Shown: positions 1,509 through 64,000, counted from the stretch's first letter. The stretch is DNA of 64,000 nt from Amphiscolops sp. MND2022 (GCA_964187785.1 OZ076409.1:72790001-72854000); one strand, 5' to 3'. Program-made: numbers and translations. Notes: generated by a model not told the origin, from the letters alone.

Positions 1509-1552
1509 GATAGCCTTTCAAGTTGGCCTTGTGTCAACTTGGAAAGGCTATC
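1509..1552. other. 44-nt hairpin/inverted repeat, type B (GATAGCCTTTCAAGTTGGC-CTTGT-GTCAACTTGGAAAGGCTATC)
   Basis: Arms are directly readable. Copies or variants at 18898-18941, 29866-29909, 53631-53673 and 55251-55293. Confidence 0.9.
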
Positions 1553-1901
1553 CTTCAAGACTCATGCAACAAAGAAGTTTTTGGGTACATTTGTATTGCT
1601 TTAGTGTCAATTAGAGTATCAACAAGAGTATACCAAGCACTAAAATTATGTCTAGTTTTCGTTATTAGGATATTAGTTTCCTTAATATTTGTCGGAAATG
1701 CTTTTTTTAATCTCTTTTAATGTGGTCTAAATACTCTGAAAACACTTTATCGAACCAATTTTCTTGGATGAACCTTAGTAACAATACTAAAAATCGTAGA
1801 CAACCTTGCTTCGTTTAAATATTTGAAGCTGAAACCGCACCTTACCGTTGCTCAAACTTCAACCCGACGCCCCATAGCATACATCAACGCCCATCGTCTG
1901 T

Positions 1902-1921
1902 GGGCATGCCGAGGCATGCCC
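1902..1921. promoter_or_regulatory. Conserved palindrome GGGCATGCC-GA-GGCATGCCC; matches the p53/p63/p73 response element (RRRCWWGYYY x2, no spacer). Representative copy
   Basis: Present near the 3' end of 44 of 45 cassette tails (e.g. 3195-3214, 44401-44420, 47886-47905, 50069-50088). GGGCATGCCG + AGGCATGCCC matches the consensus at 19/20 positions. The motif is certain; the p53 function is inferred. Confidence 0.6.
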
Positions 1922-1965
1922 TTCGACGACGTATGCCAAATACCTTTAACCCGACGCCCGCAGTC

Positions 1966-1972
1966 CTGGGTG
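1966..1972 (+). other. Cassette junction core CTRG|GTG (representative; 45 copies)
   Basis: CTGGGTG at 1966, 19354, 30323 and 36763; CTAGGTG at the other 41 boundaries (e.g. 3254, 4546, 5849, 7121). Flanking families switch on either side of it. Confidence 0.9.
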
Positions 1973-2394
1973 CCGGGATTTCTATTCGATAAAGTATGTG
2001 GCGCGCCTTGGGTAGGGTCCCTTGCGCGCTCTTGGGTATGGTGTTCACCAGCTAGGAAATAGGGGTCGATTTTTCGGGATCTCCTAAACTAGCCACACGA
2101 TTTGGCTGAAATTTGGCACACGTACTCCCCTCGGCATGGTGAAGATGATTTCCTACTAGCGTTTTGCTCGCAAAATTTTTTTTGTTGTCCAAAATAACGG
2201 TTTTTGGTGGAAAATTTTGAACTTTTTTTAAATTTCATCTTATATCTCGCCACGGGTTTACGCTAGCGCTTCAAAACCCTGCTAAAGAAAGCTTGCAAAC
2301 TGTCTCAGCAATGCGGTGTGAAATTTTCAGCACAATCGGACTCAAACTCAAGGAGATATAGCGTTTTTCCGGAGCGGGGGGGTTTCATTTTTCT

Positions 2395-2546
2395 AACGGT
2401 CCAGCTTATCTTAGCCATTTTTTCGAAAATGTACTTGCCTAAAGACCTCCCCTGGCCGGTTTTATTCCCAGCAAAACCATTTGGCCCTAAATACGGAGTT
2501 TCAGCGTTCCAGCATTCCCGGGCGAAAAGTTGTGTGACTTAGAAAA
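2395..2546 (+). repeat. Conserved central core of standard cassettes (~150 bp; ...CCTAAAG(G/A)CCTCCCCTGGCCG...CCATTTGGCCCTAAATACGGAGTTTCAGCGTTCCAGC...GACTTAGAAAA)
   Basis: The longest block shared across standard units. A degenerate version occurs in L2 units (about 49183-49248); it is not recognisable in L1, L3 or L4. Confidence 0.9.
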
Positions 2547-2943
2547 ATTCAAAAATTTTGAAATTTTTTTTTTCGGTTTTCCGCCCTCCCCCCCGAGGGG
2601 AAAAGACCCCCCAACCAGTAATTTGAGTGAATTCATGTGGAAAGGCCATGTTTAGAGGAGAAAAATCCCGTTTAAATCGTCTTTTTATCTTTATTCAACG
2701 TTGACTTATGACGTTTTGAAGGTGATGTTTGGAAGGTGTGAAGCACGTGAAAAGTAAACGTTATGAGTATTTATCTGATCTAAAAGCCATTGAGATGCAA
2801 TCTGTTTTGCTCAAAACGTAATTCATATCCGTTTGGTAGTCAATCAACACCCTTTGTTGTCATTTGACATCTTTTTTTGTTGATATAAGAAAAAATTTTG
2901 TGTATTTATTAATTTTTTTCTCATCAAATAACTTGAAACAGTT

Positions 2944-2988
2944 GAGTACATTCCATCCCCCCTTCACGGGGGAGATGAGAATGTACTC
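2944..2988. other. ~44-nt hairpin/inverted repeat, type A (GAGTACATTYCATCTCCC-loop-GGGAGATGAGAATGTACTC), preceded by CAGTT. Representative copy
   Basis: One per standard cassette, roughly 245-290 nt before the junction (e.g. 10667-10709, 36476-36518). Variants occur in L2 units at 47442 and 49626. Confidence 0.93.
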
Positions 2989-3387
2989 GCAAAAAGCCCC
3001 AAACTACGGCCCTTACCTTCCTGAGCTACGCAGTATAAAGATTGCATATTGGTTCCGACATTTTGATAGAGTTATATCTTGGTAATCTGTCTGGGTATGC
3101 AGAAAAACCAGCACGTGCTTTTTTATACCAAGTTGCTCACAACGACATTTATTTTATATCAACGCCCCCATATTTATCAACGCCCCCCGTCCGTGGGCAT
3201 GCCGAGGCATGCCCTTCGACGACGTATACCAAGATATGTTCGAGCGCGTTAGCCTAGGTGCCGGTGTTTTTTTACACAATGGGGGAAGTTGCGCGGTTGG
3301 GGAGGGTCCCTGACGCGCTTCCGTGGTATCGGGTCTTTCAACCGATGAAAACGACATAAAAAATTGGGATCTCGTAAACTAGCCATA

Positions 3388-3628
3388 CGATTTGGCTGAA
3401 ATTTGGCACACGTACCCCCCTCGGCACGGTGAAGATGATTCCCTACTGACGTTTTGCTCGCTAAACATTTTTTGTTGACCAAAATAACGGTTTTTGGGGT
3501 AAAATTTTGAACTTTTTTTAAATTTCATCTTATATCTCGCCACGGGTACACGCTAGCGCTTCCAAACCTTTCTGACGAAACCTTGCAAACTGTCTCAGGA
3601 ATGCGGTGTGAAATTTTCAGCTCAATCG
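3388..3628. repeat. Imperfect internal inverted repeat pair (CGATTTGGCTGAAATTTGGCACAC ... GTGTGAAATTTTCAGCTCAATCG). Representative copy
   Basis: 3388-3411 versus the reverse complement of 3606-3628 (CGATTGAGCTGAAAATTTCACAC). The left box is recognisable about 125-155 nt after nearly every junction, including most long units. Confidence 0.8.
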
Positions 3629-6600
3629 GACTCAAACTCGAGGAGATATAGCGTTTTTCCGGAGCGGGGGGGTTTCATTTTTCTAACGGTCCAGCTTATC
3701 TTTGCCATTTTTTCAAAAATGCACTCGCCTAAAGGCCTCCCCTGGCCGGTTTTATTCCCAGCAAAACCATTTGGCCCTAAATACGGAGTTTCAGCGTTCC
3801 AGCATTCCCGGGCGAAAAGTTGTGGGACTTAGAAAATTTCAAAAATTTTCAAAAACTTTTTTTTCCGTTATTTGGGCCCCCAAAGTGGGGGAAAAGACCC
3901 CCCAACCAGTAAAGCAAGTGAATGCATGTGCAAAGCCCTTGTTTAGAGGAGAAAAATGCCGTTTAGAACGTCTTTTTATCTTGGCTCAACGTTGACTTAT
4001 GACGTTTTGAAGGTGATGTTTGGAGGTGTAAAGCACGTGAATAGTAAACGTTATGAGTATTTATCTGATCTGAAAGCCATTGAGATGCAATATGGTTTGC
4101 TCAAAACGTAATTCATTGCAGTTTGGCGATCAATCAACACCCTTTGTTGTCGTTTGACATACTTTTTTGTTGTTATAATAAAAAATTTTGTGTATTTATT
4201 CATTTTTTTCTCATCAAATAACTTGAAACAGTTGAGTACATTCCATCCCCCCCTTCCGGGGGAGATGAGAATGTACTCGCAAAAAGCACCGAACTACGGC
4301 CCTTACCTTCCCGAGCTACGCAGTATAAGGATTACATATTGGTTCCGACATTTTCATAGAGTTAAATCTTGGTAATCTGTCTGGATATGCCGAAAAATCA
4401 GCACGTGCCTTTTAATACCAAGTTGCTCACAACGACAATTATTTTATATCAACGCCCCCATATTTATCAACGCCCCCCGTCCGTGGGCATGCCGAGGCAT
4501 GCCCTTCGACGACCCGCACCAAAATATGCGTTAACGCGGTAGCTGCTAGGTGCCGGGATTTCTATTCGTTCGAGTATGTGGCGCGTGTGGGTAGGGCCCC
4601 TGGCGCGCTCTTTTATTTCGGGTACACCTACTCCAAATTCACGATGTGATTTCGACGATCTCGTAAACTAGCCACACAATTTGGCTGAAATTTGGCACAC
4701 GTACCCCCCTCGGCACGGTGAAGATGATTTCCTACTGACGTTTTTCCCGCTAAACATTTTTTGTTGTTCAAAATAACGGTTTTTGGGGTAAAATTTTCAA
4801 CTTTTTTTAAATTTCATCTTATATCTCGCCACGGGTACACGCTAGCGCTTCCAAACCTTGCTGACGAAAGTTTGCAAACTGTCTCAGGAATGCTGTGTGA
4901 AATTTTCAGCTCAATCGGACTTAAACTCGAGGAGATATAGCGTTTTTCCGAAGCGGGGGGGTTTCATTTTTCTAACGGTCCAGCTTATCTTTGCCATTTT
5001 TTCGAAAATGCACTCGCCTAAAGGCCTCCCCTGGCCGGTTTTATTCCCAGCAAAACCATTTGGCCCTAAATACGGAGTTTCAGCGTTCCAGCATTCCTGG
5101 GCGAAAAGTTGTGGGACTTAGAAAAGTTCAAAAAATTTCAAAAAAATTTTTTTCCGTTTTCCGCCCTCCCCCCGAGGGGAAAAGACCCCCCAACCAGTAA
5201 TTTGAGTGAATTCATGTGGAAAGGCCATGTTTAGAGGAGAAAAATACCGTTTAGATCGTCTTTTTATTTTAACCTGTCGTTGACTTATGTTGTTTTGAAG
5301 GTGATGTTTGGGTGTGTGAAGCTTGTGAAACGGTAATTTATTGTGTTTTTATCTCTTCTAAAAGCATTTGAGCTACACGGTGTGCGACTCAGAACGTGTT
5401 TAATTCTAATTTAGCAATGCATCAACACATTTTTGTGTCTTTTGACTCTGTTTAAAAAAGTTTTTCCGACAAAAATAAAAAAAATTTTATAAATATTCGC
5501 ATTTTTTTTGATCTCATGACTCGAAACAGTTGAGTACATTCCATCTCCCTTCCCGGGGGAGATGAGAATGTACTCTTTAGAGACCAGGTACTACAGTACT
5601 TACCTTCCCCGAGCAACGCCCCATAAAAATTGCGTTTTGATCCAGATATTTTGACATAATTTTATCTTTGTAATTTGACTGGAAATGAAGAAAATGCCGC
5701 ACGTGCTCTTTTATATCAAGTATCTTAACAACGCCATCTCTTTTACGTCAACGCCCCATAGTTCACATCAACGCCCACCGTCCGTGGGCATGCCGAGGCA
5801 TGCCCTTCGACGACGTATGCCCAAGATATACCCCGAGCGCGGTAGCTGCTAGGTGCCGGGATTTTCTATTCGACAAGTTTGCGCGCCTTGGGGAGGGTCC
5901 CTTTGCGCGCTTTAAGATCCAGGTGTTTCCAACTCCTAAACGGGCATGTGATTTCGACGATCTCCTAAACTAGCCATACGATTTGGCTGAAATTTGGCAC
6001 ACGTACCCCCCTCGGCACGGTGAAGATGATTCCCTACTGACGTTTTTCCCGCTAAACATTTTTTGTTGACCAAAATAACGGTTTTTGGGGTAAAATTTTG
6101 AACTTTTTTTAAATTTCATCTTATATCTCGCCACGGGTACACGCTAGCGCTTCCAAATGTTGCTGACGAAAGTTTGCAAACTGTCTCAGGAATGCTGTGT
6201 GAAATTTTCAGCTCAATCGGACTTAAACTCGGGGAGATATAGCGTTTTTCCGGAGCGGGGGGGTTTCATTTTTCTAACGGTCCAGCTTATCTTTGCCATT
6301 TTTTCGAAAATGCACTCGCCTAAAGGCCTCCCCTGGCCGGTTTTATTCCCAGCAAAACCATTTGGCCCTAAATACGGAGTTTCAGCGTTCCAGCATTCCC
6401 GGGCGAAAAGTTGTGGGACTTAGAAAATTTCAAAAATTTTCAAAAAAAAATTTTTCCGTTATTTGGGCCCCCAAAGTGGGGGAAAAGACCCCCCAACCAG
6501 TAAAGCAAGTGAATGCATGTGGAAAGCCCTTAGTTAGATGAGAAAAATGGCGTTTAGAACGTCTTTTTATCTTGGCTCAACGTTGTCTTATGACGTTTTG

Positions 6601-9600
6601 AAGGTGACCGTTAGATACGGAAAATTGATGTTTTGAGTCTTTATCCCATCTGAAAGCCACTGAGATACAACATGTTTTGCTCAAAACGTATTTCATTGCA
6701 GTTTCGCTGTCCATTAACACCCTTTGGTGTCTTTTGACGTATTTTTCTTTTCTATAATATCATTTTTTCTGTGTATTGATTCATTTGTTTTTCATCAAAT
6801 AACTTGAAACAGTTGAGTACATTCCATCTCCCTTCCCTGGGGAGATGAGAATGTACTCGCTAAAGGCCGCGAACTACGGTCTATATCTTCCCCAACACAA
6901 AAGAGATTGAAAATTGTTTCATTTTGTGGAGAAAATTCTTCTTTTTGTACACTGTGACTCGACAAAGTGAACGTTTCTTACCTATTTTGAAACTTCCCTC
7001 ACCAAAAACCATCTCTAACGTCAGCGCCCCCCTACTTGCATCAACGCCCCCCGTCCGTGGGCATGCCGAGGCATGCCCTTCGACGACGTATACCAAGATA
7101 TACCTGGAGCGCGGTAGCCGCTAGGTGCCGGTGTTTTTTTACACAATGGGGGAAGTTGCGCGGTTGGGGAGGGTCCCTGACGCGCTTCCGTGGTATCGGG
7201 TCTTTCAACCGATGAAAACGACATAAAAAATTGGGATCTCGTAAACTAGCCATACGATTTGGCTGAAATTTGGCACACGTACCCCCCTCGGCACGGTGAA
7301 GATGATTCCCTACTGACGTTTTTCCCGCTAAACATTTTTTGTTGACCAAAATAACGGTTTTTGGGGTAAAATTTTCAATTTTTTTTAAATTTTATCTTAT
7401 ATCTCGCCACGGGTTTACGCTAGCGCTTCCAAACCTTGCTGACGAAACCTTGCAAACTGTCTCCGGAATGCTGTGTGAAATTTTCAGCTCAATCGGACTT
7501 AAACTCGAGGAGATATAGCGTTTTTCCGGAGCGGGGGGGTTTCATTTTTCTAACGGTCCAGCTTATCTTTGCCATTTTTTCGAAAATGCACTCGCCTAAA
7601 GGCCTCCCCTGGCCGGTTTTATTCCCAGCAAAACCATTTGGCCCTAAATACGGAGTTTCAGCGTTCCAGCATTCCCGGGCGAAAAGTTGTGGGACTTAGA
7701 AAATTTCAAAAATTTTCAAAAATTTTTTTTTCCGTTATTTGGGCCCCCAAAGTGGGGGAAAAGACCCCCCAACCAGTAAAGCAAGTGAATGCATGTGCAA
7801 AGCCCTTGTTTAGAGGAGAAAAATGCCGTTTAGAACGTCTTTTTATCTTGGCTCAACGTTGACTTATGATGTTTTGAAGGTGATGTTTGGAGGTGTAAAG
7901 CACGTGAATAGTAAACGTTATGAGTATTTATCTGATCTGAAAGCCATTGAGATGCAATATGGTTTGCTCAAAACGTAATTCATGGCAGTTTGGCAATCAA
8001 TCAACACCCTTTAATGTCGTTTGACATACTTTTTTGTTGTTATAATAAAAATTTTGTGTATTTGTTCATTTTTTTCTCATCAAATAACTTGAAACAGTTG
8101 AGTACATTCCATCCCCCCCTTCCGGGGGAGATGAGAATGTACTCGCAAAAAGCAGCGAATTACGGCCCTTACCTTCCCGAGCTACGCACTATAAGAATTA
8201 CACATTGGTTCCGACATTTTCATAGAGTTAAATCTTGGTAATCTGTCTGGATATGCAGAAAAATCAGCACGTGCCTTTTAATACCAAGTTGCTCACAACG
8301 ACAATTATTTTATATCAACGCCCCCCGTCCGTGGGCATGCCGAGGCATGCCCTTCGACGACGTATACCAAGATATGCGTTAACGCGTTAGCCTAGGTGCC
8401 GGTGTTTTTTTACACAATGGGGGAAGTTGCGCGGTTGGGGAGGGTCCCTGACGCGCTCCCGGGATTTCGGATTTTTTAACCTTTACGTACCCATCAAAAA
8501 TTTTGGGATCTCGAAAACTAGCCGTACGATTTGGCTGAAATTTGGCACACGTACCCCCCTCGGCACGGTGAAGATGATTCCCTTCTGACGTTTTGCTCGC
8601 TAAACATTTTTTGTTGACCAAAATAACGGTTTTTGGGGTAAAATTTTCAACTTTCTTTAAATTTCATCTTATATCTCGCCACGGGTACACGCTAGCGCTT
8701 TCAAACCTTGCTGACGAAAGTTTGCAAACTGTCTCAGGAATGCTGTGTGAAATTTTCAGCTCAATCGGACTCAAACTCGAGGAGATATAGCGTTTTTCCG
8801 GAGCGGGGGGGTTTCATTTTTCTAACGGTCCAGCTTATCTTTGCCATTTTTTCGAAAATGTACTCGTCTAAAGGCCTCCCCTGGCCGGTTTTATTCCCAG
8901 CAAAACCATTTGGCCCTAAATACGGAGTTTCAGCGTTCCAGCGTTTCCGGGCGAAAAGTTGTGGGACTTAGAAAATTTCAAAAATTTACAAAAAAAATTT
9001 TTTTCTTATTTGGGCCCCCAAAGTGGGGGAAAAGACCCCCCAACCAGTCAAGCAAGTGAATGCATGTGCAAAGCCCTTGTTTGGACGAGAAAAATGCCGT
9101 TTAGAACGTCTTTTTATCTTGGCTCAACGTTGACTTATGACGTTTTGAAGGTGATGTTTGGAGGTGTAAAGCACGTGAATAGTAAACGTTATGAGTATTT
9201 ATCTGATCTGAAAGCCATTGAGATGCAATATGGTTTGCTCAAAACGTAATTCATGGCAGTTTGGCAATCAATCAACACCCTTTGTTGTCGTTTGACATAC
9301 TTTTTTGGTGTTATAATAAAAAAATTTGTGTATTTATTCATTTTTTTCTCATCAAATAACTTGAAACAGTTGAGTACATTCCATCCCCCTTCACGGGGGA
9401 GATGAGAATGTACTCGCAAAAAGCACCGAACTACAGCCCTTACCTTCCTGAGCTACGCAGTATAAAGATTGCATATTGGTTCCGACATTTTGATAGAGTT
9501 ATATCTTGGTAATCTGTCTGGGTATGCAGAAAAACCAGCACGTGCTTTTTTATACCAAGTTGCTTACAACGACAATTATTTTATATCAACGCCCCCATAT

Positions 9601-12600
9601 TTATCAACGCCCACCGTCCGTGGGCATGCCGAGGCATGCCCTTCGACGACGTATACCAAGATATACATCGAGCGCGTTAGCCTAGGTGGCCGTGTCTTTT
9701 CGACGTGCTTTTGCATTGAGGAGTGGGTAGGGCCCCGCGACGACCTAGAAGAATTGGATGCTCACCGAAACGTGCAGAATTCTACGAGATCTCATAGTTT
9801 GAGCCATACGATTTTTCTGAAATTTGGCATGTGGCCTGGAATTGGTGAGTAGGTAAAACGTGTAGAAGGTAATTTTTCCCAAATTCCACTGTGAGAGGAG
9901 ATATGGGCAAATAACGGACCCAAAAATGGCAAAAATGCACATTTTTCAACTTTGTCAGCCAATATCTCTTTTCCAGGTGCCCGTAGCGTTCCGCACGTGG
10001 ACATCAATATTGCTCAGCGCTGTTGGAGAAGTGCGTGGACAAATTTTGGTTTAAATCGGACTTAAACTTGACGAGAAATTAACGGTTTTTTGGGCGTTTC
10101 CGGGGTAAATTTTTTAACGGTCCAGCTTATCTTTGCCATTTTTTCGAAAATGTACATGCCTAAAGGCCTCCCCCTGGCCGAATTTACTCCCAGCAAACCC
10201 ATTTGGCCCTAAATACGGAGTTTCAGCGTTCCAGCATTCCGGGGCGGAAAGTTGTGGGACTTGGAAAAATTTCAAAATTTTTTCAAAAAATTTTTTTCCC
10301 GTTTTCCGGGCCCCCAATGAAGGGGAACGACCCCCCGACCAGTATTTTGAGTGAATTCATGTGGAACGCCCATGTTTGGAGGAGAAAAATGCCGTTTAGC
10401 ACATCTTTTTATCTTAACTTGACATTGACTTATTTCGTTTTGAATGTGATGTTAGGATATATGAAGCATGTTAAAAGTTGAAGTTTTGAGTCTTTATCTC
10501 ATCGGAAAACCATTGAGATACAAGCAGTTTTGCTAAAAACGATTTTCATTGTAGGTTAGCAGAGTATTAGTACACTTTGATGTCATTTGAGTATTTTTTT
10601 CTTCTATATAATAACTGTTTTTATGTATTTATTCCAATTTATCTCATCTTTTAACATCAAGCAGTTGAGTACATTTCATCTCCCTTTCGGGGGAGATGAG
10701 AATGTACTCGCTAAAAAACTAATGCTTTGGCGCCAATGTTTGGATGGGAAGTTTTCTATGCTTTGAAAAAAGTTATTTTTAATTACTTGATTTTTTAAAA
10801 CAATAATTAACATGAAGTACATTACTTGCTCCTACTACTACCACCATACATCTCTAACGTCAACGCCCCCTGCTTGCATCAACGCCCCATCGTCCGTGGG
10901 CATGCCGAGGCATGCCCTTCGACGACGTATGCCAAATGCCCAATGCCACGCAGTCTTTCCCCGCTAGGTGCCGGGATTTTCTATTCGACAAGTTTGCGCG
11001 CCTTGGGGAGGGTCCCTTTGCGCGCTTTAAGATCCAGGTGTTTCCAACTCCTAAACGGGCATGTGATTTCGACGATCTCCTAAACTAGCCATACGATTTG
11101 GCTGAAATTTGGCACACGTACCCCCCTCGGCACGGTGAAGATGATTTCCTACTGACGTTTTTCCCGCTAAACATTTTTTGTTGACCAAAATAACGGTTTT
11201 TGGGGTAAAATTTTCAACTTTTTTTAAATTTCATCTTATATCTCGCCACGGGTACACGCTAGCGCTTCCAAACCTTGCTGACGAAACCTTGCAAACTGTC
11301 TCAGGAATGCTGTGTGAAATTTTCAGCTCAATCGGACCCAAACTCGAGGAGATATAGCGTTTTTCCGGAGCGGGGGGGTTTCATTTTTCTAACGGTCCAG
11401 CTTATCTTTGCCATTTTTTCGAATATGCACTCGCCTAAAGGCCTCCCCTGGCCGGTTTTATTCCCAACAAAACCATTTGGCCCTAAATACGGAGTTTCAG
11501 CGTTCCAGCATTCCCGGGCGAAAAGTTGTGGGACTTAGAAAAGTTCAAAAATTTTCAAAAAAAAAATTTTCCGTTATTTGGGCCCTCAAAGTGGGGGAAA
11601 AGACCCCCCAACCAGTAAAGCAAGTGAATGCATGTGGAAAGCCCTTGTTTAGACGAGAAAAATGCCGTTTAGAACGTCTTTTTATCTTAACTTGACATTG
11701 ACTTTTGTCGTTTTGAAGGTGACCGTTAGATACGGAAAATTGATGTTTTGAGTATTTATCCCATCTGAAAGCCATTGAGATACAACATGTTTTGCTCAAA
11801 ACGTGTTTCATTGCAGTTTCGCTGTCCATTATCACCCTTTGGTGTCTTTTCACGTAATTTTCGTTTCTATAATAACAATTTTTTTGTGTATTTATTCATT
11901 TTTTTCTCATCAAATAACTTGAAACATTTGAGTACATTCCATCTCCCTTCCCGGGGGAGATGAGAATGTACTCGCTAAAGGCCAGGAACTACGGTCTATA
12001 TCTTCCACAACACAAAAGGGATTGCAAATGGTTTCAGTTTGTCGCAGAAAACTTCTTTTGGCCCTCTGTGACTCGACAAAATGAACGTTTCTTACTTACT
12101 TTGAAACTCAGCATACCACAACTCATCTCTAACGTCAGCGCCCCCCTACTTGCATCAACGCCCACCGTCCGTGGGCATGCCGAGGCATGCCCTTCGACGA
12201 CGTATACCAAGATATACATCGAGCGCGGTAGCCGCTAGGTGCCGGGATTTCTATTCGTTCGAGTATGTGGCGCGTGTGGGTAGGGCCCCTGGCGCGCTCT
12301 TTTATTTCGGGTACACCTACTCCAAATTCACGATGTGATTTCGACGATCTCGTAAACTAGCCATACGATTTGGCTGAAATTTGGCACACGTACCCCCCTC
12401 GGCACGGTGAAGATGATTCCCTACTGACGTTTTGCCCGCTAAACATTTTTTGTTGACCAAAATAACGGTTTTTGGTGGAAAATTTTTGATTTTTTTTAAA
12501 TTTCATCTTATATCTCGCCACGGGTTTACGCTAGCGCTTCAAAACCTTGCTGACGAAAGTTTGCAAACTGTCTAAGGAATGCTGTGTGAAATTTTCAGCT

Positions 12601-45700: not shown

Positions 45701-45769
45701 TCCGTGGGCATGCCGAGGCATGCCCTTCGACGACGTATGCCAAAGATATTCCCGAGCGCGTTAGCCTAG

Positions 45770-51413: not shown

Positions 51414-54213
51414 GTGGCGGGGGGCTGTCCCCAATAGAATATAGTGAGGTAGGGTAGGGTTCCCTACCGAACATTCAGTACTGAAAGACTCTTGTAGTAT
51501 GAAAATTTTTCGATGTTTTGAGACCGATTTCGGATTCCACCCGTCAGAAGTTTATGATTTTTTGGCCCCCACCCAGATTTTGGGCACTGATCGCCCCCCA
51601 CCAGGTTCCATACCCGTGGTTTCGTTGTGACGGGTACACGAGCGACCGTTAGGGGTCAATCAGGGGGTAAAATTTATAAAAGTGTGAATAACTTTTCCCC
51701 CCGTCGTTTTAGCAGGTCCGGTCACTAGTAAAGGTTTGTTGGGCATCATGCAGTGGGTACGGGGGGCCAAACAAAAATTTTCTATCATGCACCGTTACGG
51801 ACTTGGCCCCCCGCCCAAACCGCTATTTTACCGGAAATTGCACTTTTTGAACGGGAAGGAGTCGTCTGAGCGCGGAGTCGTTTGGTAATGTTTTGTAGAG
51901 CATCTGAAGACGTGGTGGGGGACATGTAGTTTGCCGACCCCAGTTTACCCCTCGGACGGGAAATGACCGTTATGTTAGTTTTAAAATTGCCCCCCGTCAA
52001 CTTTAACCGCTATTTCTGGTGTGAAGGAGTCGGAACAGCGTGTCGGGTGCTATATATCAAAAGTAGCTTTAAACAAGGACCTATCAGAAACATGTGGTTT
52101 GGGACCCTTTGAACGGACCCGTTAGCCGGAAATAGGGTGACCGCCTCCTTTTTTGGTGTTAAAACCGTAAAACGGGCATTAAAGTGAAATTATCTCGTGA
52201 ACGCGTGGAGCAATCGTGTCCATCACTCCTACAAGGTTTCATACCCATGACATGGTGTCTTCAGGGGGGCAAACAGATCAGCGCTATCTATCACCGTTAC
52301 GGACTTTGCCCCCCAGCCTAACCGCTATATTACCGGAAACTGCCCTTTTTGACCGGGAAGGAGTCGTCTGAGAGTGGAGTCGTTAAGTAATGTTTTGTAG
52401 AGCATCTAGAGACGTGTTGGGGGACATGTAGTTTGCCGACCCCTGTTTACCCCTCGGACGGGAAATGACCGTTATGTTAGTTTTAAAATTGCCCCCCGTC
52501 AACTTTAACCGCTATTTCTGGTGTGAAGGAGTCGGAATAGCGTGTCGGGTGCTACATATCAAAAGTAGCTTTAAACAAGGACCTATCAGAAACATGTGGT
52601 TTGGGACCCTTGGAACGGACCCGTTAGCCGGAAATAGGGTGACCGCCTCCTTTTTCTGCGGTTAAAATTGTAAAACGGGCATTGAAGTGGAATTATCTTG
52701 AAAACGCGTGGAGCTATAGTGTCCTTCACTACTACAAGGTTTCATACTCAAGATACGGTGCCTTCAGGGGGGAAAACAGATTACCGCTATATATCACCGT
52801 TACGGACTTGGCCCCCAGCCTAACCGCTATGTTACCGGAAATGTCATTTTTTGAGCCAAAAGGGTTAGTCCCAGCGTGGGAACGTCAGGTAACTTTATGT
52901 AGAACTCAATGAGACGAGTTGGGGGATATGGTTTCAGTCACCCCCCGTTGACCCGTTAGACCGGAAACGACCGTTATGTAGTGAAAAATGTAATTTTTAT
53001 ACTTTTTGAAGGCCATTTAGGGCAGGAAGTATCGGTAATATGTCTTTGGACAGTATACAATGAAAGTTTTGGTGTGAAACAAGCAATCTGAAATATCCGT
53101 TATTATGATTCGGAAGTCACACTAACAGCGAAAATGACCTTTATGTAGTGAAAATTTTTTTCACATTTTTTTTTTGCTTTCGATAGGTCCTTCAAGCCAA
53201 GAAGTAGCTGTATTAGGTCTTTGGCCACTTTATGATGATTGTGGTGTTGTGAGATGACCGTACGAACTTGACCTTTATAATGCCCCTGAAGTTGCTGCGG
53301 CACGAGAAATTTCAGAAAGTTTGTCTTTTCTGTGTTTTGTTGGAATAAACATTTAATTTCATTAAACCAATGTGCATTCAGGGTGTTTAGAAAGCTTCAA
53401 GAAAAGAATTTAATAGGAAACATGGCGGTGAGAAATAACAAATTGCCACGTAAATCCAACCCCCGTTGGGGAATAAATGTAATAAATTGTTTTTGGAAGT
53501 GCCAATCGACGTGTATTTGCGGATCATAGCCACGGTATTGTCTATTCGTGTTTCTTTTTGAAGACTTTGAACATTTTCACTTTATCAGCTTGAGGTTTTA
53601 ACTCTATATGCTTAATAACCGTTACAATATGATAGCCCTCAAGTTGACCTTGTGTCAACTTGAAAGGGCTATCCTTTCACAACTGCGCAGCAACAGTGTG
53701 ATTGAGTGATTTAGTTATTATCCAAGGCCAATTTGAACTTCAACAAGATTTTAACCACAATATTTAAAACTATTCATATGATTCTTTCAAAAGGGTAAAT
53801 ATTTAACTAATATTTGACAAAAAAACTCCAACCTTTAATTTGTGGACCGAATAGTAGGAAAACCATGTTTCTTAACGTTGTTGGATGAAATTCAAAATGA
53901 TGCTTTTAAAAGAATAACAATTCTTGACACTATATATTTTTTCTATTTTCCAATAAACTATTTTTCCAAAAGTCTATTTTTCCAATAAACATTGTTGATT
54001 GATGCCCATTCATAGTGACTGGAAAGTTTTACCAACTGTGGTGTTTTTTTTTAATCAGAGGTGAAACCGCTCCCTACCGTCGCATAATGTAATTCAAGCC
54101 GACGCCCACATGCCAACATCAACGCCCACCGTCCGTAGGCATGCCGAGGCATGCCTTTCGACGACGTATGCCAAATCACGCCCCTGCGAGGTCACTAAAG
54201 CGGTAGCGGCTAG
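51414..54213 (+). repeat. Long cassette type L3 (2800 bp), an L1 relative with an internal ~502-bp tandem duplication
   Basis: ACCGTTACGGACTT recurs at 51791, 52293 and 52796. The duplicated block is homologous to L1 positions ~374-849. Type B hairpin at 53631. Confidence 0.92.
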
Positions 54214-55601
54214 GTGGTTGGGGCGGTCCCCAGAACGCACAAGGAGGCGCGGGGAGGGTCCTGCGCCGACGTAGAATAATTTCATATAATACTAGTATCC
54301 TACATGGGTGTTTTAGAAGCGATTTTGGAATCTAACCGTAGGATTTGGATAATTTTTTGCATGCGGCCATAACTCGAAATTCTAAGAACTTTTTCCTACT
54401 GTCATTTTCCCCGCAAAATGTTTTTTGTTGACTTATGGCCGAAAAACCGGAAATAACGTCCTTTTTAGACGTTATATCCGAAGTGTCGTCATAACTTTTT
54501 TCCAGGGCATGCTAGCGTTCTCGTTCACTTTTACACTTAGTTGCAGCATCTCAAAATACAACTGGTGGAAAATTTTGATTGCATTCGGATCACCCCCCAC
54601 CGAGATAGAAGGGTTCCCCCCTCCAGTTTTACCCCCCAAATTTGCGAAAAAGCCAATTTTGAGCATGAAGCCGAGGATTTAGCGTACCCGCACCCTCCTG
54701 GTGTTTTGTTGTACGTATTGGGGTCAATCGGACGACATGTGTGGTTTTCACCCCCAACCCCCCCTGGGACCGGAAATGACAATTTTTTGTGTTTTTTGGC
54801 AGAAATTAGCCTTTTTCATTAGTTGGCAGTCGTTTTAGGGACTCCTAGCAGGATATCGAAATTGAAATACAACCTGATCACAACCCAGTGACAACATGTT
54901 GGCCATTTGGAGGTACCATCATGACCGGAAGTGGGGTCAACCCCCCTTTTTGTGACCGCTTTTTGACCTTGTGAACCAAAATGCCAACAACTTGAGGCCT
55001 AATGACGCATTCAAATCTGTAAAAAGATAGAATGTTAGACAACCAAAGTCCCGGAAGATCTTTAGCATATACCGGCAGTTACCCCCCATGACCGGAAGTT
55101 ACCCAATGTGACCGGAAATGGTCCAAAACTTAATGTAAAGTTGAATTTTTCACTATTTCAAGACCACTTGATTGAACATTTTCATTCCCAAAACTAGCGT
55201 ACTGGCTTGTTTTGCTGAATTTATGGAAATTGATGAGCTCTATCACCCCCGATTGCCTTCGAAGTTGACCTTGCGTCAACTTTGGAGGCTATCGATACTG
55301 AAAATGAACAACAAAGTACATTGTTGCTCTCGGTTTTTTCCCGTTGTTTTTCCTCAAACATTCTTGAGACATATACATGGCCGTTAGTTGAAATCAATAT
55401 TTAGCCCATGTTATAGCTGGAGCAGCGAAGCGTTACACAGACTAGTGTGGTTTTGAAATTACATTATTTAAATTAACAACTGACCGTCTTAGTCAACTCC
55501 ACACATTCATACCAACGCCCACCGTCTGTGGGCATGCCGAGGCATGCCCTTCGACGACGTATGACGAATCCACTCCAACGACACCCGCAGTCCTCAGCTA
55601 G
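54214..55601 (+). repeat. Cassette type L4 (1388 bp): L2-like CCGGAAG module plus type B hairpin
   Basis: Shares TCACCCCCCAC(C/T)GAGATAGA, GCATGAAGC and ACCGG(A/C)AGT(A/T)ACCCCCC motifs with L2 (48367-48900). The hairpin at 55251 is of the L1/L3 type. Confidence 0.85.
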
Positions 55602-58600
55602 GTGCCGGGATTACTATTCGATAAGGAATTTTGCGCGGTTGGGTAGGGCCCCGTGAGCGCGCCAGGGGATAGTGTTAGAACAACAAGGATTTGGGCATCA
55701 GTTGGGAGCGATTTTCTAAACTATCCGTACGATTTTGCTGAAATTTGGCATGAAGCTTCCTTGGAACATTCTAAGAACAAATCCCTACTGGCGTTTTGCT
55801 GGGAAAAATCAAAAAGTTGGTCAAAAATGCGATTTTCCGACAAAATTTTGGGGTAAAATTTTTTTGAAACGTTATATCTCGCCACAGGGTCACGCTAGCG
55901 CCTCGCAACCTATGATCGTGTTTTGTTGGGCGTTGTCTGTAGAACACGTATGCCAAATTTGGTGGCGATCGGACTTAAACTCAGGGAGATATAGCGATTT
56001 TTTAGGTGCATTTTTTGACATTTTTTGCATTTGCCGATTTATCTCTGCCGTTTTTGCCCAAATTTTTTTTGAGACACTCTCCTAAAGACCTCCCCTGGCC
56101 GGTTTACCTCCCAGCAGAACCATTTGGCCCTAAATACGGAGTTTCAGCGTTCTAGCATTCCTGGGCGAAAAGTTGTGGGACTTAGAAAAATTTTTTTGAA
56201 ACGCAAAATGTGTAAAGTCAACTTCAGGCCTCCCAAAGTCAAAGAACATTCACACAACTAGGATTGCAAGTGGGTGCATGTGGAAAGTACTCGGATAGAC
56301 GAGAAAAATGAGCTATAGAACGACTCTGTAGCTTAACCTGACGTTGACTTATGACAATTTTAGTGTGAGCTTGCTATTTGGTGTAAAAATTCAAATGATG
56401 AAAATCGAAGCTAAGTCTCATCCAAAACTCATCGGAATACGTTCAATGCACCCCAAAGCGGATTAATTCGAGATGTTTAGTGCAGCAACACCATTCAAGA
56501 CCATTTGACCCATTTTTATAAGTTTTGACAACGTATTATTCATACGAGAGCACGAAACAGTTGAGTACATTCCATCTCCCTTTCGGGGGAGATGAGAATG
56601 TACTCGCTAAAGTCCAGGTACTACAGCCCAAATTTGCTTTTATGCGACGCTCTTATGCTAGTGCGCATACTTTTTAATCGTTTAACTGAATTTTCTTCTG
56701 TCTGCACTTTGACTTTGACTTGACATATAGTGAACGTTTTGTCTTACAACTTACAAATGAGTAACGTCAACGCCCCATCCTTGCATTAACGCCCACCGTC
56801 CGTGGGCATGCCGAGGCATGCCCTTCGACGACGTATGCCAAGATATATCCCAAGCGCGGTAGCCGCTAGGTGCCGGGATTTCTATTCGATAAAGTAAGTT
56901 GCGCGGTTGGGTAGGGCCCCGTGAGCGCGCCCGTGTCTGTGTTTTTTGAACCTGAATTTGCGGGTGCCAAAATAGACGATCTCCTAAACTATCCATACGA
57001 TTTTGCTCAAATTTGGCATACGGGTTCCTGAGACAGATATAAGAACTAATTCCTACTGGCGTTTTGCCCGGAAAATTTTTTTTGTTGCGCAAACTTGAAA
57101 TTTTTGACAAAAAAATGCGATTTTTTTTGAAAAATTTTTTTTGAGAGGCCATATCTTTTTTCAGGGAGCCCGGAGCGGGACGCGTTAAACTGATTATAAA
57201 CTCTACGGTTCACGGGCTGTACGGGGAACCTATTTTTGTTGGAATCCGACTTGTAGATTTTGAGATATATTATCAAATTTGGGTGTTTTTTTTCCAATTT
57301 TTCGAAAAACCTGGTTTATCTCTGCCGTTTTTTGCCCAGATTTTTTTCTAGACCCTCTCCTAAAGGCCTCCCCTGGCCGGATTACCTCCCAGCAAAACCA
57401 TTTGGCCCTAAATACGAAGTTTCAGCGTTCTAGCATTCTAGGGCGAAAAGTTGTGGGACTTAGAAAAAGTTTTTTGAAAACGCAAAATGTGTAAAGTCAA
57501 CTTCAGGCCTCCCAAAGTCAAGGAACTTCCACACAACTAGGATTGCAAGTGGATGCATGTGGAAAGTGCTTAAATAGACGAGGAAAATGAGCTATTATAA
57601 AACTCTGTAGCTTAACTTGACGTTGGCTTATGACAATTTTAGTGTGAGCTTGTTATGTGAGAAAAAATTTCAAAAATTGAAAATCGAAGCTAAGTCTCAT
57701 CCAAAACTCATCGGAACACGTTCAATCCATTCCAAAGCGGTTTACTTCCAGCTATAGACTGCAGCAACGCTATTCAAGACCATTGGACCCCTTTATATTA
57801 GTTTTGACACCGTATTATTCATCCGAGAGCACAAAGCAGTTGAGTACATTCCATCTCCCTTTCGGGGGAGATGAGAATGTACTCGCTAAAGAACAGGTAC
57901 TACAGCCCATATTTGTTTTTATGCGACACTTTTATGGTTTGTATGCTAGTGCGTACACGTATTAATCTTTTAACTTTTTTTGTCGTCTGCAGTTTGACTT
58001 TGACTTGACATAAACTGAACGTTTTGTCCTTACAACATACACATTACTAACGTCAACGCCCCATCCTTGCATCAACGCCCACCGTCCGTGGGCATGCCGA
58101 GGCATGCCCTTCGACGACGTATGCCAAAGATATTCCCAAGCGCGGTAGCCGCTAGGTGCCGGTGTCTTTTTACACAATGGGGGAAGTTGCGCGGTTGGGG
58201 AGGGTCCCTGACGCGCTTCCGTGAGATCAGGTTTTTCAACTAGTGAAATCGACAAAGAAAATTGAGATCTCGTAAACTAGCCATACGATTTGGCTGAAAT
58301 TTGGCACACGTACCCCCCTCGGCACGGTGAAGATGATTTCCTACTGACGTTTTTCCCGCTAAACATTTTTTGTTGACCAAAATAACGGTTTTTGGGGTAA
58401 AATTTTCAACTTTTTTTAAATTTCATCTTATATCTCGCCACGGGTGCACGCTAGCGCTTCCAAATCTTGCTGACGAAAGTTTGCAAACTGTCTCAGGAAT
58501 GCTGTGTGAAAATTTCAGCTCAATCGGACTCAAACTCGAGGAGATATAGCGTTTTTCCGGAGCGGGGGGGTTTCATTTTTCTAACGGTCCAGCTTATCTT

Positions 58601-61600
58601 TGCCATTTTTTCGAAAATGCACTCGCCTAAAGGCCTCCCCTGGCCGGTTTTATTCCCAGCAAAACCATTTGGCCCTAAATACGGAGTTTCAGCGTTCCAG
58701 CATTCTCGGGCGAAAAGTTGTGGGACTTAGAAAATTTCAAAAATTTTCAAAAAATTTTTTTTTCGTTATTTGGGCCCCCAAAGTGGGGGAAAAGACCCCC
58801 CAACCAGTAAATCAAGTGAATGCATGTGGAAAGGCCATGTTTAGAGGAGAAAAATGCCGTTTAGAACGTCTTTTTATCTTGGCTCAACGTTGACTTATGA
58901 CGTTTTGAAGGTGATGTTTGGAGGTGTAAAGCAAGTGAATAGTAAACGTTATGAGTATTTATCTGATCTGAAAGCCATTGAGATGCAATATGGTTTGCAC
59001 AAAACGTAATTCATTGCAGTTTGGCAATCAATCAACACCCTTTGTTGTCGTTTGACATACTTTTTTGTTGTTAAAATAAAAAATTTTGTGTATTTATTCA
59101 TTTTTTTCTCATCAAATAACTTGGAACAGTTGAGTACATTCCATCCCCCCCTTCCGGGGGAGATGAGAATGTACTCGCAAAAAGCACCGAACTACAGCCC
59201 TTACCTTCCCGAGCTACGCAGTATAAGGATTACATATTGGTTCCGATATTTTCATAGAGTTATATATTGGTAATCTGTCTGGATATGCCGAAAAATCAGC
59301 ACGTGCCTTTTAATACCAAGTTGCTCACAACGACAATTATTTTATATCAACGCCCCCATATTTATCAACGCCCCCCGTCCGTGGGCATGCCGAGGCATGC
59401 CCTTCGACGACCCGCACCAAAATATGCGTTAGCGCGGTAGCCGCTAGGTGCCGGTGTTTTTTTACACAATGGGGGAAGTTGCGCGGTTGGGGAGGGTCCC
59501 TGACGCGCTTCCGTGGTATCGGGTCTTTCAACCGATGAAAACGACATAAAAAATTGGGATCTCGAAAACTAGCCATACGATTTGGCTGAAATTTGGCACA
59601 CGTACCCCCCTCGGCACGGTGAAGATGATTCCCTACTGACGTTTTTCCCGCTAAACATTTTTTGTTGACCAAAATAACGGTTTTTGGGGTAAAATTTTCA
59701 ACTTTTTTTAAATTTCATCTTATATCTCGCCACGGGTGCACGCTAGCGCTTCCAAACCTTGCTGACGAAAGTTTGCAAACTGTCTCAGGAATGCTGTGTG
59801 AAAATTTCAGCTCAATCAGACTTAAACTCGAGGAGATATAGCGTTTTTCCGGAGCGGGGGGGTTTCATTTTTCTAACGGTCCAGCTTATCTTTGCCATTT
59901 TTTCAAAAATGCACTCGCCTAAAGGCCTCCCCTGGCCGGTTTTATTCCCAGCAAAACCATTTGGCCCTAAATACGGAGTTTCAGCGTTCCAGCATTCCCG
60001 GGCAAAAAGTTGTGGGACTTAGAAAATTTCAAAAATTTTCAAAATTTTTTTTTCCGTTATTTGGGCCCCCAAAGTGGGGGAAAAGACCCCCCAACCAGTA
60101 AAGCAAGTGAATGCATGTGCAAAGCCCTTGTTTAGAGGAGAAAAATGCCGTTTAGAACGTCTTTTTATCTTGGCTCAACGTTGACTTATGAGGTTTTGAA
60201 GGTGATGTTTGGAGGTGTAAAGCATGTGAATAGTAAACGTTATGAGTATTTATCTGATCTGAAAGCCATTGAGATGCAATATGGTTTGCTCAAAACGTAA
60301 TTCATGGCAGTTTGGCAATCAATCAACACCCTTTGTTGTCGTTTGACATACTTTTTTTGTTGTTATAATAAAAAATTTTGTGTATTTATTCATTTTTTTC
60401 TCATCAAATAACTTGAAACAGTTGAGTACATTCCATCCCCCCTTCACGGGGGAGATGAGAATGTACTCGCAGAAAGCCCCGAACTACGGCCCTTACCTTC
60501 CTGAGCTACGCAGTATAAAGATTGCATATTGGTTCCGACATTTTGATAGAGTTATATCTTGGTAATCTGTCTGGGTATGCAGAAAAACCAGCACGTGCTT
60601 TTTTATACCAAGTTGCTTACAACGACAATTATTTTATATCAACGCCCCCATATTTATCAACGCCCCCCGTCCGTGGGCATGCCGAGGCATGCCCTTCGAC
60701 GACGTATACCAAGATATGTTCGAGCGCGTTAGCCTAGGTGCCGGTGTTTTTTTACACAAAGGGGGATGTTGCGCGTGTGGGGAGGGTCCCTGACGCGCTC
60801 CCGGGATTTCGGATTTTTTAACCTTTACGTACCCATCAAAAATTTTGGGATCTCGAAAACTAGCCGTACGATTTGGCTGAAATTTGGCACACGTACCCCC
60901 CTCGGCACGGTGAAGATGATTCCCTACTGACGTTTTGCTCGCTAAACATTTTTTGTTGACCAAAATAACGGTTTTTGGGGTAAAATTTTCAACTTTTTTC
61001 AAATTTCATCTCATATCTCGCCACGGGTACACGCTAGCGCTTCCAAACCCTGCTGACGAAAGCTTGCAAACTGTCTCAGGAATGCTGTGTGAAATTTTCA
61101 GCTCAATCGGACCTAAACTCGGGGAGATATAGCGTTTTTCCGGAGCGGGGGGGTTTCATTTTTCTAACGGTCCAGCTTATCTTTGCCATTTTTTCGAAAA
61201 TGCACTCGCCTAAAGGCCTCCCCTGGCCGGTTTTATTCCCAACAAAACCATTTGGCCCTAAATACGGAGTTTCAGCGTTCCAGCATTCCCGGGCGAAAAG
61301 TTGTGGGACTTAGAAAAGTTCAAAAATTTTCAAAAAAAATTTTTTCCGTTATTTGGGCCCTCAAAGTGGGGGAAAAGACCCCCCAACCAGTAAAGCAAGT
61401 GAATGCATGTGGAAAGCCCTTGTTTAGACGAGAAAAATGCCGTTTAGAACGTCTTTTTATCTTAACTTGACATTGACTTTTGTCGTTTTGAAGGTGACCG
61501 TTAGATACGGAAAATTGATGTTTTGAGTATTTATCCCATCTGAAAGCCATTGAGATACAACATGTTTTGCTCAAAACGTGTTTCATTGCAGTTTCGCTGT

Positions 61601-64000
61601 CCATTATCACCCTTTGGTGTCTTTTCACGTAATTTTCGTTTCTATAATAACAATTTTTTTGTGTATTTATTCATTTTTTTCTCATCAAATAACTTGAAAC
61701 AGTTGAGTACATTCCATCTCCCTTCCCGGGGGAGATGAGAATGTACTCGCTAAAGGTCAGGAACTACGGTCTATATCTTCCACAACACAAAAGGGATTGC
61801 AAATGGTTTCAGTTGGTCGCAGAAAACTTCTTTTTGCCCTCTGTGACTCGACAAAATGAACGTTTCTTACTTACTTTGAAACTCAGCATACCACAACTCA
61901 TCTCTAACGTCAGCGCCCCCCTACTTGCATCAACGCCCACCGTCCGTGGGCATGCCGAGGCATGCCCTTCGACGACGTATACCAAGATATACCTGGAGCG
62001 CGGTAGCTGCTAGGTGGCCGGAAATTTTTTTTTCATCAAAATCTTTGCCATTGGGGGAGGGGCCCCGGATGGCCAGTAGTACGGGATAGCTTCCTACCAA
62101 ATCCAGGCGGAAAAAACGTGATTTCGGAAACTAGCCGTCAGAATTTGCTCAAATTTTGCATACGGCTTCCCATGACAATCCTAAGAACTAATCCCTACTG
62201 GCATTTTGCCCAAAAAACGCAAAAAGTTGGTCAAAATCTTAGTTTTTTGGTCAAAAAATGGCGTTTTTTCGAAAAAAAAATTTTTCTGAGACAATTACTC
62301 GTAACTGGTTCACCCAGCGCAAAAACGCCCAGCTGATTTATTGTTGGGCACTTCATGAGGAGTGCGTATACAAATTTTCGTCCAGATCGGAAAAAAAATG
62401 ACTAAGTATTAGCCGGAATTCGGACGCATTTTTTCGCAAATTTTTGAAAACCTAGTCTATCTCTGCCGTTTTTTGCCCAGATTTTTTTCCAGGTCCTCTC
62501 CTAAAAGCCTCCCCTGGCCGGTTTACTTCCCAGAAAAACCAATTGGCCCTAAATACGGAGTTTCAGCGTTCTAGCATTCCCGGGCGAAAAGATGTGGGAC
62601 TTAGAAAAAATTCAAAATTTTTCAAAAAATTTTTTTTCGTTTTCCGGCCCCCCAATGAAGGGGAACGACCCCCCAACGAGGATTTTTGGTGAATTCACGT
62701 GGAAAGGCCTTGTTTTGTGGAGCAAATTGCCGTTTAGAGCAACTTTTTATCTTAACTTGACGTTGACCTCTGTCGTTTTGAATTTGATATTAGTATGTGT
62801 TGAGCATGTGAAAAGTTGATGATTTCAGTTGTTCTCTCGTGTTCAAGCCATTGAGATACAAGCGGTAGTGATCAAAATGTGATTTATCGCACTTTGATGG
62901 TGCTTTTGGTGTATTTTGATTCTTTTAAATAAAAAGTTGTTCTTTATATTTTTGGTGTATTGATTCAAATGAACAAGAAACAGTTGAGTACATTTCATCT
63001 CCCCCCTTGTGGGGGAGATGAGGATGTACCCGCTAAATGACACGCACAATGGCCTAATTTTATTTTTATGCGACATTTTCTAGGCTTTTGCGCAAGCCCA
63101 CTAAAATTTAGACTGGTTTCCTTTTCTTTTACTCCAAAATTTTCCGTACTAACCACCTTACGCACCACCAGCTCAACGTAACATCTGTAACGTCAACGCC
63201 ACACACTCTCACTAACGCCCACCGTCCGTGGGCATGCCGAGGCATGCCCTTCGACGACGTATGCCAAATAGCGCCACAGGGCGCAAACATTCCCGCTAGG
63301 TGGCCGTGTCTTTTCGACGTGCTTTTGCATTGAGGAGTGGGTAGGGCCCCGCGACGACCTAGAAGAATTGGATGCTCACCGAAACGTGCAGAATTCTACG
63401 AGATCTCATAGTTTGAGCCATACGATTTTTCTGAAATTTGGCATGTGGCCTGGAATTGGTGAGTAGGTAAAACGTGTAGAAGGTAATTTTTCCCAAATTC
63501 CACTGTGAGACGAGATATGGGCAAATAACGGTCCCAAAAATGGCAAAAATGCACTTTTTTCAACTTTGTCAGCCCATATCTCGTTCCCAGGTGCCCGGAG
63601 CGGGACGCGTTAAGCTGATTATAAACTCTAGGGTGTTGAGGCTGTACGGGGAAGTCAGGCCCGTTCCGATCGGACTTGTAGTCTTGGAGAAATAACGGTA
63701 TTTTTGGGGAACCTTTTCTAACGGTCCAGCTTATCTTTGCCATTTTTTCGAAAATGTACTAGCCTAAAGGCCTCCCCCTGGCCGAATTTACTCCCAGCAA
63801 AACGATTTGGCCCTAAATACGGAGTTTCAGCGTTCCAGCATTCCCGGGCGAAAAGTTGTGGGACTTGGAAAATTTTCAAAATTTTTCAAATTTTTTTTTT
63901 CGTTTTCCGGGCCCCCAATGAAGGGGAAACGACCCCCCAACCAGTATTTTGAGTGAATTCATGTGGAAAGCCCTTGTTTTGACGAGAAAAGTACCGTTTA

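Follow-up and report, generated by a model that had tools for sequence, protein, structure and literature searches.

Bacterial integrons carry arrays of heterogeneous cassettes that all lie in the same orientation, share a very short core and contain one bulged hairpin each. We could observe an array reminiscent of this layout in a 64,000-nucleotide stretch of the Amphiscolops sp. MND2022 assembly (GCA_964187785.1, OZ076409.1:72790001-72854000), subsequently referred to as the window. Here, units follow one another head to tail, are joined at the junction core CT[AG]GGTG and contain one long hairpin each (Table 1). The array differs from integrons in that the hairpin lies 290–590 bases from the crossover and not at it, that the cassettes contain no genes and that no integrase is in view.

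Cryptons are described as having terminal direct repeats of 4–6 bases and no inverted repeats, and the classical tyrosine-recombinase site as a core of 6–8 bases between inverted arms of 11–13 bases (PMC3212892). The active element CryptonF-1_cRei ends in the motif that it targets (CACCG, CAYCG), excises cleanly and still gains copies (PMC9977147). The units of the window likewise lack terminal inverted repeats and have a short direct repeat, GGTG, at their ends (PMC3212892); as in the active Crypton, the end motif would also be the target motif, and the core reads CACC on the minus strand (PMC9977147). A proposed circular intermediate and abundant gene-less derivatives are further likenesses (PMC3212892; PMC9977147). 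Unlike for a Crypton, however, no recombinase gene was found in the window, there is no dyad symmetry around the core, and the passages on animal Cryptons report no terminal repeats and describe neither heterogeneous head-to-tail arrays nor internal hairpins (PMC3212892; PMC9977147). Replitrons resemble the units in their 6-base terminal direct repeats, oriented insertion, right-end palindrome and short non-autonomous copies, and HUH enzymes are reported to recognise hairpins (PMC10288648). In the relevant parts of that source, Replitrons are described from plants, algae and protists, and Replitron-1 has fuzzy right ends and variable duplications, in contrast to 45 precise junctions out of 45 here (PMC10288648). 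No Rep gene was found in the window.

Other families share single features with the array. Canonical Helitrons have the CTAG or CTGG right end seen at all 45 junctions, a palindrome upstream of it and known head-to-tail circles, but the left end here is GTG and not TC, there is no A/T target, one unit has no palindrome, and the palindrome lies 35–53 bases from the core while the Helitron hairpin lies about 11 bases from the 3' end (PMC4778049). A canonical Helitron was rejected, as the CTRR end was found without the TC 5' end, the A-T insertion or a hairpin at about 11 bases. The Helentron-associated HINE/DINE-1 elements are also non-coding, with internal tandem repeats and a palindrome near the right end; the window lacks their subterminal inverted repeats of 11–15 bases and their T-run or TT ends (PMC4067079), and we rejected them because these repeats are absent and the junction is CT[AG]GGTG instead of a T-run or TT. 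KolobokP forms tandem DNA-transposon multimers in animal genomes, for which a circular intermediate has been proposed, but it has terminal direct repeats of 450 or 660 bases plus terminal inverted repeats, whereas the units here come from many families and share a core of only 4–7 bases (PMC9587614); KolobokP was rejected for the lack of both kinds of repeat. Miniature elements with terminal inverted repeats (MITEs) were rejected as well, since inverted matches of the first 100 bases to the last 100 reach at most 5–8 bases in 44 units, compared with 5–9 in shuffles. The units are gene-less DNA transposon-like elements, and because the partner enzyme was not found, we do not assign them to any one family.

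Cutting the window at its 45 cores gave 45 units, the first of which is cut by the window edge and some 46 bases short, and a 46th piece (from 63296) that stops ahead of the hairpin position. There are 38 standard units, three L1, two L2, one L3 and one L4. Their bodies range from 1.27 to 2.8 kb, and where these are dissimilar (L1, L3, L4, L2, standard), the common sequence is limited to about 100–390 bases at the left end and 50–110 bases at the right end. GGTG is invariant at all 45 junctions. The right end reads CTAG at 41 of them and CTGG at the remaining 4, so that CTRG is followed by GTG throughout. Left and right end classes are coupled within a unit (adjusted mutual information 0.55, reached in 0 of 2000 permutations) and nearly independent across a junction (0.08, 128 of 2000), with 37 different end pairings among the 45 junctions. 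In a per-position test, the bases through core position 3 track the upstream unit and those beyond GGTG track the downstream unit; the switch from unit to unit maps to GGTG. The units are discrete, non-coding and unidirectional, and they are exchanged whole at this core. Eleven repeats reach 1.2 kb at 96% identity or more; 10 of these end 6–18 bases past a core start, and the segment 36760-38047 is repeated, core to core, at 50135-51421, 13 kb away. No repeats longer than 100 bases at 96% identity or more were found on the minus strand of the window.

A scan for the terminal-palindrome pattern matched a sole contig, L001 (1172 bases), in a metagenome collection. On it, the right part of a related unit, with a type A hairpin and the palindrome, runs through a CGAGGTG junction into the start of another unit; the aligned blocks are mostly 68–94% identical to units of the window. 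Its GGTG is the same, and its CGAG does not fit CTRR. Since L001 has both the junction type and hairpin A, the arrangement is not limited to the present assembly. One distant sequencing run (share 0.08) yielded 16 short contigs of mixed identity to the window, which gave no evidence on expression, ends or circles.

The position of the switch also bears on how the array has grown. Compared with the 4-base core, the roughly 50 conserved bases that directly precede it offer far more homology, and crossing over in this palindrome block would link the last 30 bases ahead of the core to the downstream unit. These bases track the upstream and not the downstream unit, so that unequal crossing over there is disfavoured. 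A host structural satellite (centromeric or subtelomeric) that spreads by unequal crossing over, with motifs kept for a chromatin function and no mobility at the core, would be in line with a non-coding array of at least 64 kb in which neighbours are more alike than random and one two-unit block is duplicated at 97% identity. Nevertheless, such a satellite is very unlikely: besides the behaviour of the 30 bases, the 38 standard units have a pairwise identity of 53–99% with a median of 65%, which differs from a homogenised satellite, and bodies of such different length share only their ends. Site-specific joining at the core, taken alone, is highly probable.

We then turn to the hairpins. The sequence-only reading had claimed that each unit has exactly one hairpin of about 44 nt with a stem of about 19 bp, in two mutually exclusive and unrelated types. 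For the long hairpin this rule holds in 45 of 45 units, both by motif and by an unbiased 46-nt folding scan of every unit with DNA parameters: type A occurs in 40 units (the 38 standard and 2 L2 units) and type B in 5 (the 3 L1 units, L3 and L4), and none has both or neither. Per unit, the scan returned one hairpin of −15.2 to −20.3 kcal/mol with 16–20 bp, which belonged to type A or B in every case. All other internal hairpins were weaker than −11 kcal/mol, while the best value in 24 dinucleotide shuffles of 6 units (37,888 bases) was −11.7 kcal/mol. Degenerate second copies off the known sites were not found with up to 7 mismatches in 23 for the B core or up to 4 in 18 for the A arm; relaxing the latter to 5 in 18 brings up six scattered matches. 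The size was also as claimed (43–46 nt), although the majority of stems have flaws, as a rule a 3' bulge, because of which an ungapped hairpin scan missed most copies, and the quoted arm variants of type B are present as given. "Exactly one" does not extend to hairpins in general, as 44 of the 45 units also have the terminal palindrome and most have a left-end hairpin, both of them weaker structures. The long hairpin lies 293 to 585 bases from the right end of the unit and thus is not the crossover site.

Both types (15 haplotypes of A and 3 of B in the window) usually consist of 10 bp, a one-base bulge on the 3' side, 8–10 more bp and a loop of 4–6 bases; L2 and L4 have no bulge, and L3 has a two-base bulge. 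Across 12 divergent unit families, the arms of type A are 96% identical, which places them in the top 1% of 18-column windows (median 58%), and identity drops from 0.96 at the arms to 0.44 within 36 bases. Both arms are equally conserved (0.962 and 0.963). The loop sequence is variable, and the invariant inner halves of the stem are 14, 15, 16 and 17 bases apart in 14, 13, 9 and 4 of the 40 copies, respectively; a rigid dimer site would account for this variation less well than a folded structure. In addition, the C-run and the G-run beside the loop lengthen together, and most copies have a one-base indel between the arms. Judged by these patterns, the long hairpin is under constraint, mainly on its sequence, and tolerant in its loop. 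It could instead be a dyad site at which a dimeric protein binds double-stranded DNA and which never folds, and the sequence conservation of both arms without covariation or strand preference would agree with this. The four spacings, the indel between the arms and the two runs that lengthen in step make such a site rather unlikely.

Type B offers some evidence on pairing. L1 and L3 differ by one clean double change (T-A to C-G), but their flanks are also related (z 5–7), which leaves only two independent settings for B. The L4 hairpin is similar to those of L1 and L3 (z 9.5), whereas its flanks, over 100 bases on each side, are no more similar than shuffles (z 0–1.3). On the plus strand, each of the three wobbles seen among the B haplotypes is a G-T pair, and this is also the strand on which L4 folds better. 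Swapping arms between haplotypes adds little: for type A, the result (7 of 20000 permutations) depends on the lengths of the runs beside the loop and on the split at the centre and carries little weight, and for type B, three haplotypes are too few for significance.

The strand pattern in type B could be explained if the same array had a hairpin that is transcribed and processed to a small RNA, with A and B as two guide sequences. A 19-bp stem with a short loop has the size of a short-hairpin substrate, the sequence is conserved beyond pairing, and within the window derived states of type A number five in the 3' arm and none in the outer 5' arm. However, the A arms are equally conserved overall, the wobbles of type A show no strand bias, and no Rfam family reaches its gathering score in the window (the best match below the threshold, in 45700-57000, has an E-value of 0.55). 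We therefore give the small RNA a low probability.

Whether A and B are unrelated, as had been stated, is not established. They share their geometry, and in a structure-fixed register 6–9 of the first 18 bases match. This similarity is weak (374 of 3000 permutations ungapped, 44 of 1000 gapped with arm and loop aligned) and compatible either with convergence on one geometry or with remote common descent. No pairing is seen between an A arm and a B arm (about −2 kcal/mol), so that the two would be distinct keys today. The exclusivity of the types has a simpler background. At least one of two central-block markers is present in 39 of the 40 A units and in none of the 5 B units, and this block is conserved as strongly as the hairpin. 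Because A travels with the central block and the B hairpins are three haplotypes from two flank lineages, the 45 units are not 45 independent tests of exclusivity, which weakens the earlier reading; exclusivity mostly reflects descent, and the 45 copies reduce to two body lineages. The L2 units represent one natural cross, with a middle shared with L4 (64–74%) and a right part shared with the standard units. They carry A only, as either a functional or a passenger reading predicts. Of the proposal that two specificity classes share one junction chemistry, the shared junction stands, while the exclusivity largely follows the ancestry of the bodies.

It is thus conceivable that the hairpins are mere passengers of two ancestral body lineages, kept alike by conversion between arms and units, and that no function is needed. 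The link between A and the central block, the equal conservation of that block and the mosaic structure of the units all suit such passengers, and a crossover upstream of the hairpin would be enough to explain why the L2 chimeras have just one. On the other hand, passengers would not account well for the steep loss of identity around the arms, for an L4 hairpin that resembles those of L1 and L3 between unrelated flanks, or for the persistence of a related hairpin in L001. The passenger explanation is thus improbable, to about the same degree as the dyad site and the small RNA.

Our preferred reading, held tentatively and with a little less than even confidence, is an accretion array of non-autonomous DNA elements that belong to many related families and take their own junction as target; the hairpin would be a class-specific recognition key. 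An enzyme encoded elsewhere would cut and join at the core. An excised or copied unit, probably a circle in which the right end, the core and the left end form the junction, would re-insert into any junction in fixed orientation. A circle closed at the core would have the same form as every junction of the array, and through exchange at GGTG, whole units would be gained, lost and reordered, with local duplication and exchange within units acting as well. The long hairpin would be an internal cis key, read by its sequence in a folded or extruded form by a host protein or one encoded by the partner, and may be needed for copying of the unit, for example where a single-stranded or circular intermediate is primed or loaded. 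A and B would then be two specificity versions of one slot. The long hairpin is retained even in the unit that has no terminal palindrome (35492-36769).

Several observations weigh against this reading. The array extends past both ends of the window, which shows neither an edge nor an empty site. Searches of the window and pattern scans of other collections yielded no gene for a recombinase, Rep protein or helicase. Adjacent units are more similar than in random order (0.757 versus 0.700, 3 of 5000 permutations), and units are internally mosaic, with switches at internal conserved blocks; unequal exchange or conversion therefore also shapes the array and could keep the conserved blocks alike. 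There is no dyad symmetry around the core (complementarity at any nearby centre of at most 0.305 versus about 0.25 at 37 own-end junctions), which argues against a classical tyrosine-recombinase site. In type A, none of the 19 pairs shows a double change among 16 haplotypes including L001 (re-anchoring L001 by its ends gives one), and the derived single changes on the plus strand (four G-T, three A-C, two T-T) have no strand bias, so that type A provides no support for folding in vivo. The outer four pairs are decayed in the hairpins of both L2 units. Hence the compensation claimed to keep the pairing is thin, with one clean double change in B, and the sparse compensation together with the A-C and T-T mismatches points to a constraint on sequence as much as on pairing, weaker ground than first assumed. 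The notion of an obligatory cis element is likewise upheld only in part: the arms are conserved islands and every unit in the window has one, but exclusivity is mostly descent and compensation is sparse.

As to the joining chemistry, a Crypton-like tyrosine recombinase is the most probable single candidate, at somewhat less than even odds. An HUH rolling-circle enzyme, suggested by the CTRR right ends, the Replitron-like direct repeats with a right-end palindrome and the arm result for the left-end hairpin described below, is somewhat less probable, and all other chemistries together are about as probable as the HUH enzyme. By analogy with integrons, the array might be a eukaryotic cassette system of gene-less units that an enzyme excises and re-inserts at GGTG, in which one of two interchangeable bulged hairpins alike in geometry, as folded DNA or short-hairpin RNA, would license which helper copies a unit; this seems a rather distant prospect.

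Large, heterogeneous and precisely joined arrays would imply a site-specific joining enzyme that targets the junction of its own elements, a safe-harbour strategy. The partner, if found, would name the chemistry and provide a short-core recombination system with fixed orientation. It would also account for the growth of non-coding arrays to great length without the homogenisation typical of satellites. Swapping the two hairpin types would be a ready-made experiment on how helpers are matched with non-autonomous families. Should the hairpins be mere passengers, the finding would shrink to a marker of two lineages, and the junction result would stand. The evidence for the junction is strong, and the hairpin rule is partly explained by descent.

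Table 1. Coordinates of the array, its junction cores, hairpins and other repeated features in the window
Feature	Position	Strand	Remarks
Head-to-tail array	1..64000	+	45 non-coding units and a cut 46th; single orientation throughout
L1 units	first (cut by window edge), 17350-19360, 28308-30329		
L2 units	45766-47965, 47959-50145		
L3 unit	51410-54216		
L4 unit	54210-55604		
Junction core CT[AG]GGTG	first at 1966..1972	+	45 occurrences, intervals 1.27-2.8 kb
Core starts 1-23	1966, 3254, 4546, 5849, 7121, 8392, 9682, 10964, 12235, 13520, 14795, 16073, 17350, 19354, 20630, 21899, 23182, 24464, 25743, 27022, 28308, 30323, 31605	+	
Core starts 24-45	32892, 34179, 35492, 36763, 38036, 39309, 40581, 41875, 43184, 44456, 45766, 47959, 50139, 51410, 54210, 55598, 56866, 58152, 59444, 60734, 62010, 63296	+	
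Type B hairpin, L1 unit (first, edge-cut)	1509..1552		
Type B hairpin, L1 unit 17350-19360	18898..18941		
Type B hairpin, L1 unit 28308-30329	29866..29909		
Type B hairpin, L3 unit	53631..53673		one double change T-A to C-G versus L1
Type B hairpin, L4 unit	55251..55293		two G-T wobbles, one T-T mismatch, bulge absent; flanks unrelated to L1/L3
Type A hairpin, first of 38 standard units	2944..2988		
Type A hairpin starts, standard units	4234, 5532, 6815, 8100, 9372, 10667, 11930, 13210, 14490, 15770, 17047, 20333, 21605, 22885, 24167, 25447, 26725, 27998, 31308		43-46 nt each
Type A hairpin starts, standard units (continued)	32583, 33869, 35178, 36476, 37727, 39004, 40275, 41563, 42871, 44156, 45453, 51101, 56563, 57842, 59132, 60424, 61705, 62986		43-46 nt each
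Type A hairpin, unit 35492-36769	36476..36518		sole unit without terminal palindrome
Type A hairpin, L2 unit 45766-47965	47442..47487		central bulge absent, outer 3' arm decayed
Type A hairpin, L2 unit 47959-50145	49626..49671		
Type A hairpin, last in window	62986..63031		one A-C mismatch, T-G wobbles
Central-block marker travelling with type A (example)	2477..2495	+	
Terminal palindrome, 20 bp (example)	1902..1921		35-53 bases ahead of core in 44/45 units
Second, redundant upstream palindrome copies in L2 units, decayed	47689-47708, 49873-49892		
Left-end hairpin (example)	2000..2033		about 35-70 bases past core; loop region conserved, outer stems family-specific
Internal tandem repeat of about 500 bp in L3	51782..52979	+	common to L1 at 83-84%

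The unit without a terminal palindrome (35492-36769) is of standard length and has a different right end, but it keeps a normal core and a variant of type A. As it joins normally, the palindrome is not needed at every junction. In the other 44 units and in L001 (812-831), the palindrome matches, at 19 of 20 positions, the consensus of a zero-spacer pair of p53-type decamers. In the variant at 54137, both outer bases have changed together, so that the palindrome and the p53-type match are kept. No shared hairpin was found in the last 36 bases of the units.

The left-end hairpin was not found in the two L2 units and is weak in one standard family; in L001, it lies at about 915-945. It folds better with its own arm than with those of other families (−7.9 versus −5.8 kcal/mol, 19 of 20000 permutations, the own arm being best in only 3 of 11), a hint of single-stranded intermediates. 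RNAalifold returned three pairs without covariation for these hairpins, in an alignment that breaks the family-specific stems. The segment just past this hairpin is the most variable one in the standard units (19 classes in 38) and is swapped between otherwise identical bodies.

We also searched the window for genes and RNAs. There are no long reading frames, the largest having 136 aa. Two listings contain 137 and 67 open frames, and 21 longer ones were scanned against Pfam; 20 had no family, and one had two matches below the cut-off. This is a stop-free frame of 97 codons in L3 (53106-53396, minus strand; E-values 2.8e-05 and 0.0025), for which an atlas look-up gave no usable match, and the Pfam matches are probably due to chance. 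Four unit patterns had no match in viral contigs, two had none in prokaryote genomes, and a blastn query with 53000-57000 had none among phages and plasmids. These negatives, together with the long non-coding layout and its runs of A and T, suggest a eukaryotic host. The window contains no tRNAs, and with no Rfam match at gathering score either, an array of RNA genes was rejected. Dada elements make 6–7-base duplications and target small-RNA genes (PMC8869645); they were also weighed, and the window contains no RNA gene that could serve as target. A heterogeneous core-joined array with an internal hairpin of two types was not described in the titles and abstract starts of the literature searched. 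Novelty is provisional, as Repbase and Dfam were not covered and the families may already be named there.

Some minor features of the units remain to be mentioned. An AAC-N-GTT motif stands directly ahead of type A (e.g. 2935-2943) and a few bases ahead of type B in L1 and L3 (e.g. 1493-1502); L2 and L001 have altered versions, and L4 has none. The motif CCGGAA[AG]T is present at least three times in all 5 B units and in 1 of the 40 A units. The two L2 units (45766-50145) are adjacent although they are about 83% identical, have a duplicated right-end block of about 200 bases and look as if the middle of L4 had been crossed with the right half of a standard unit. L3 and L4 are neighbours as well and are both of type B. 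Short-period tandem repeats in the window are trivial only. Its G+C content is 42%, and with an observed/expected ratio of 1.02, CpG is not depleted, so that there is no sign of long-term decay driven by methylation.

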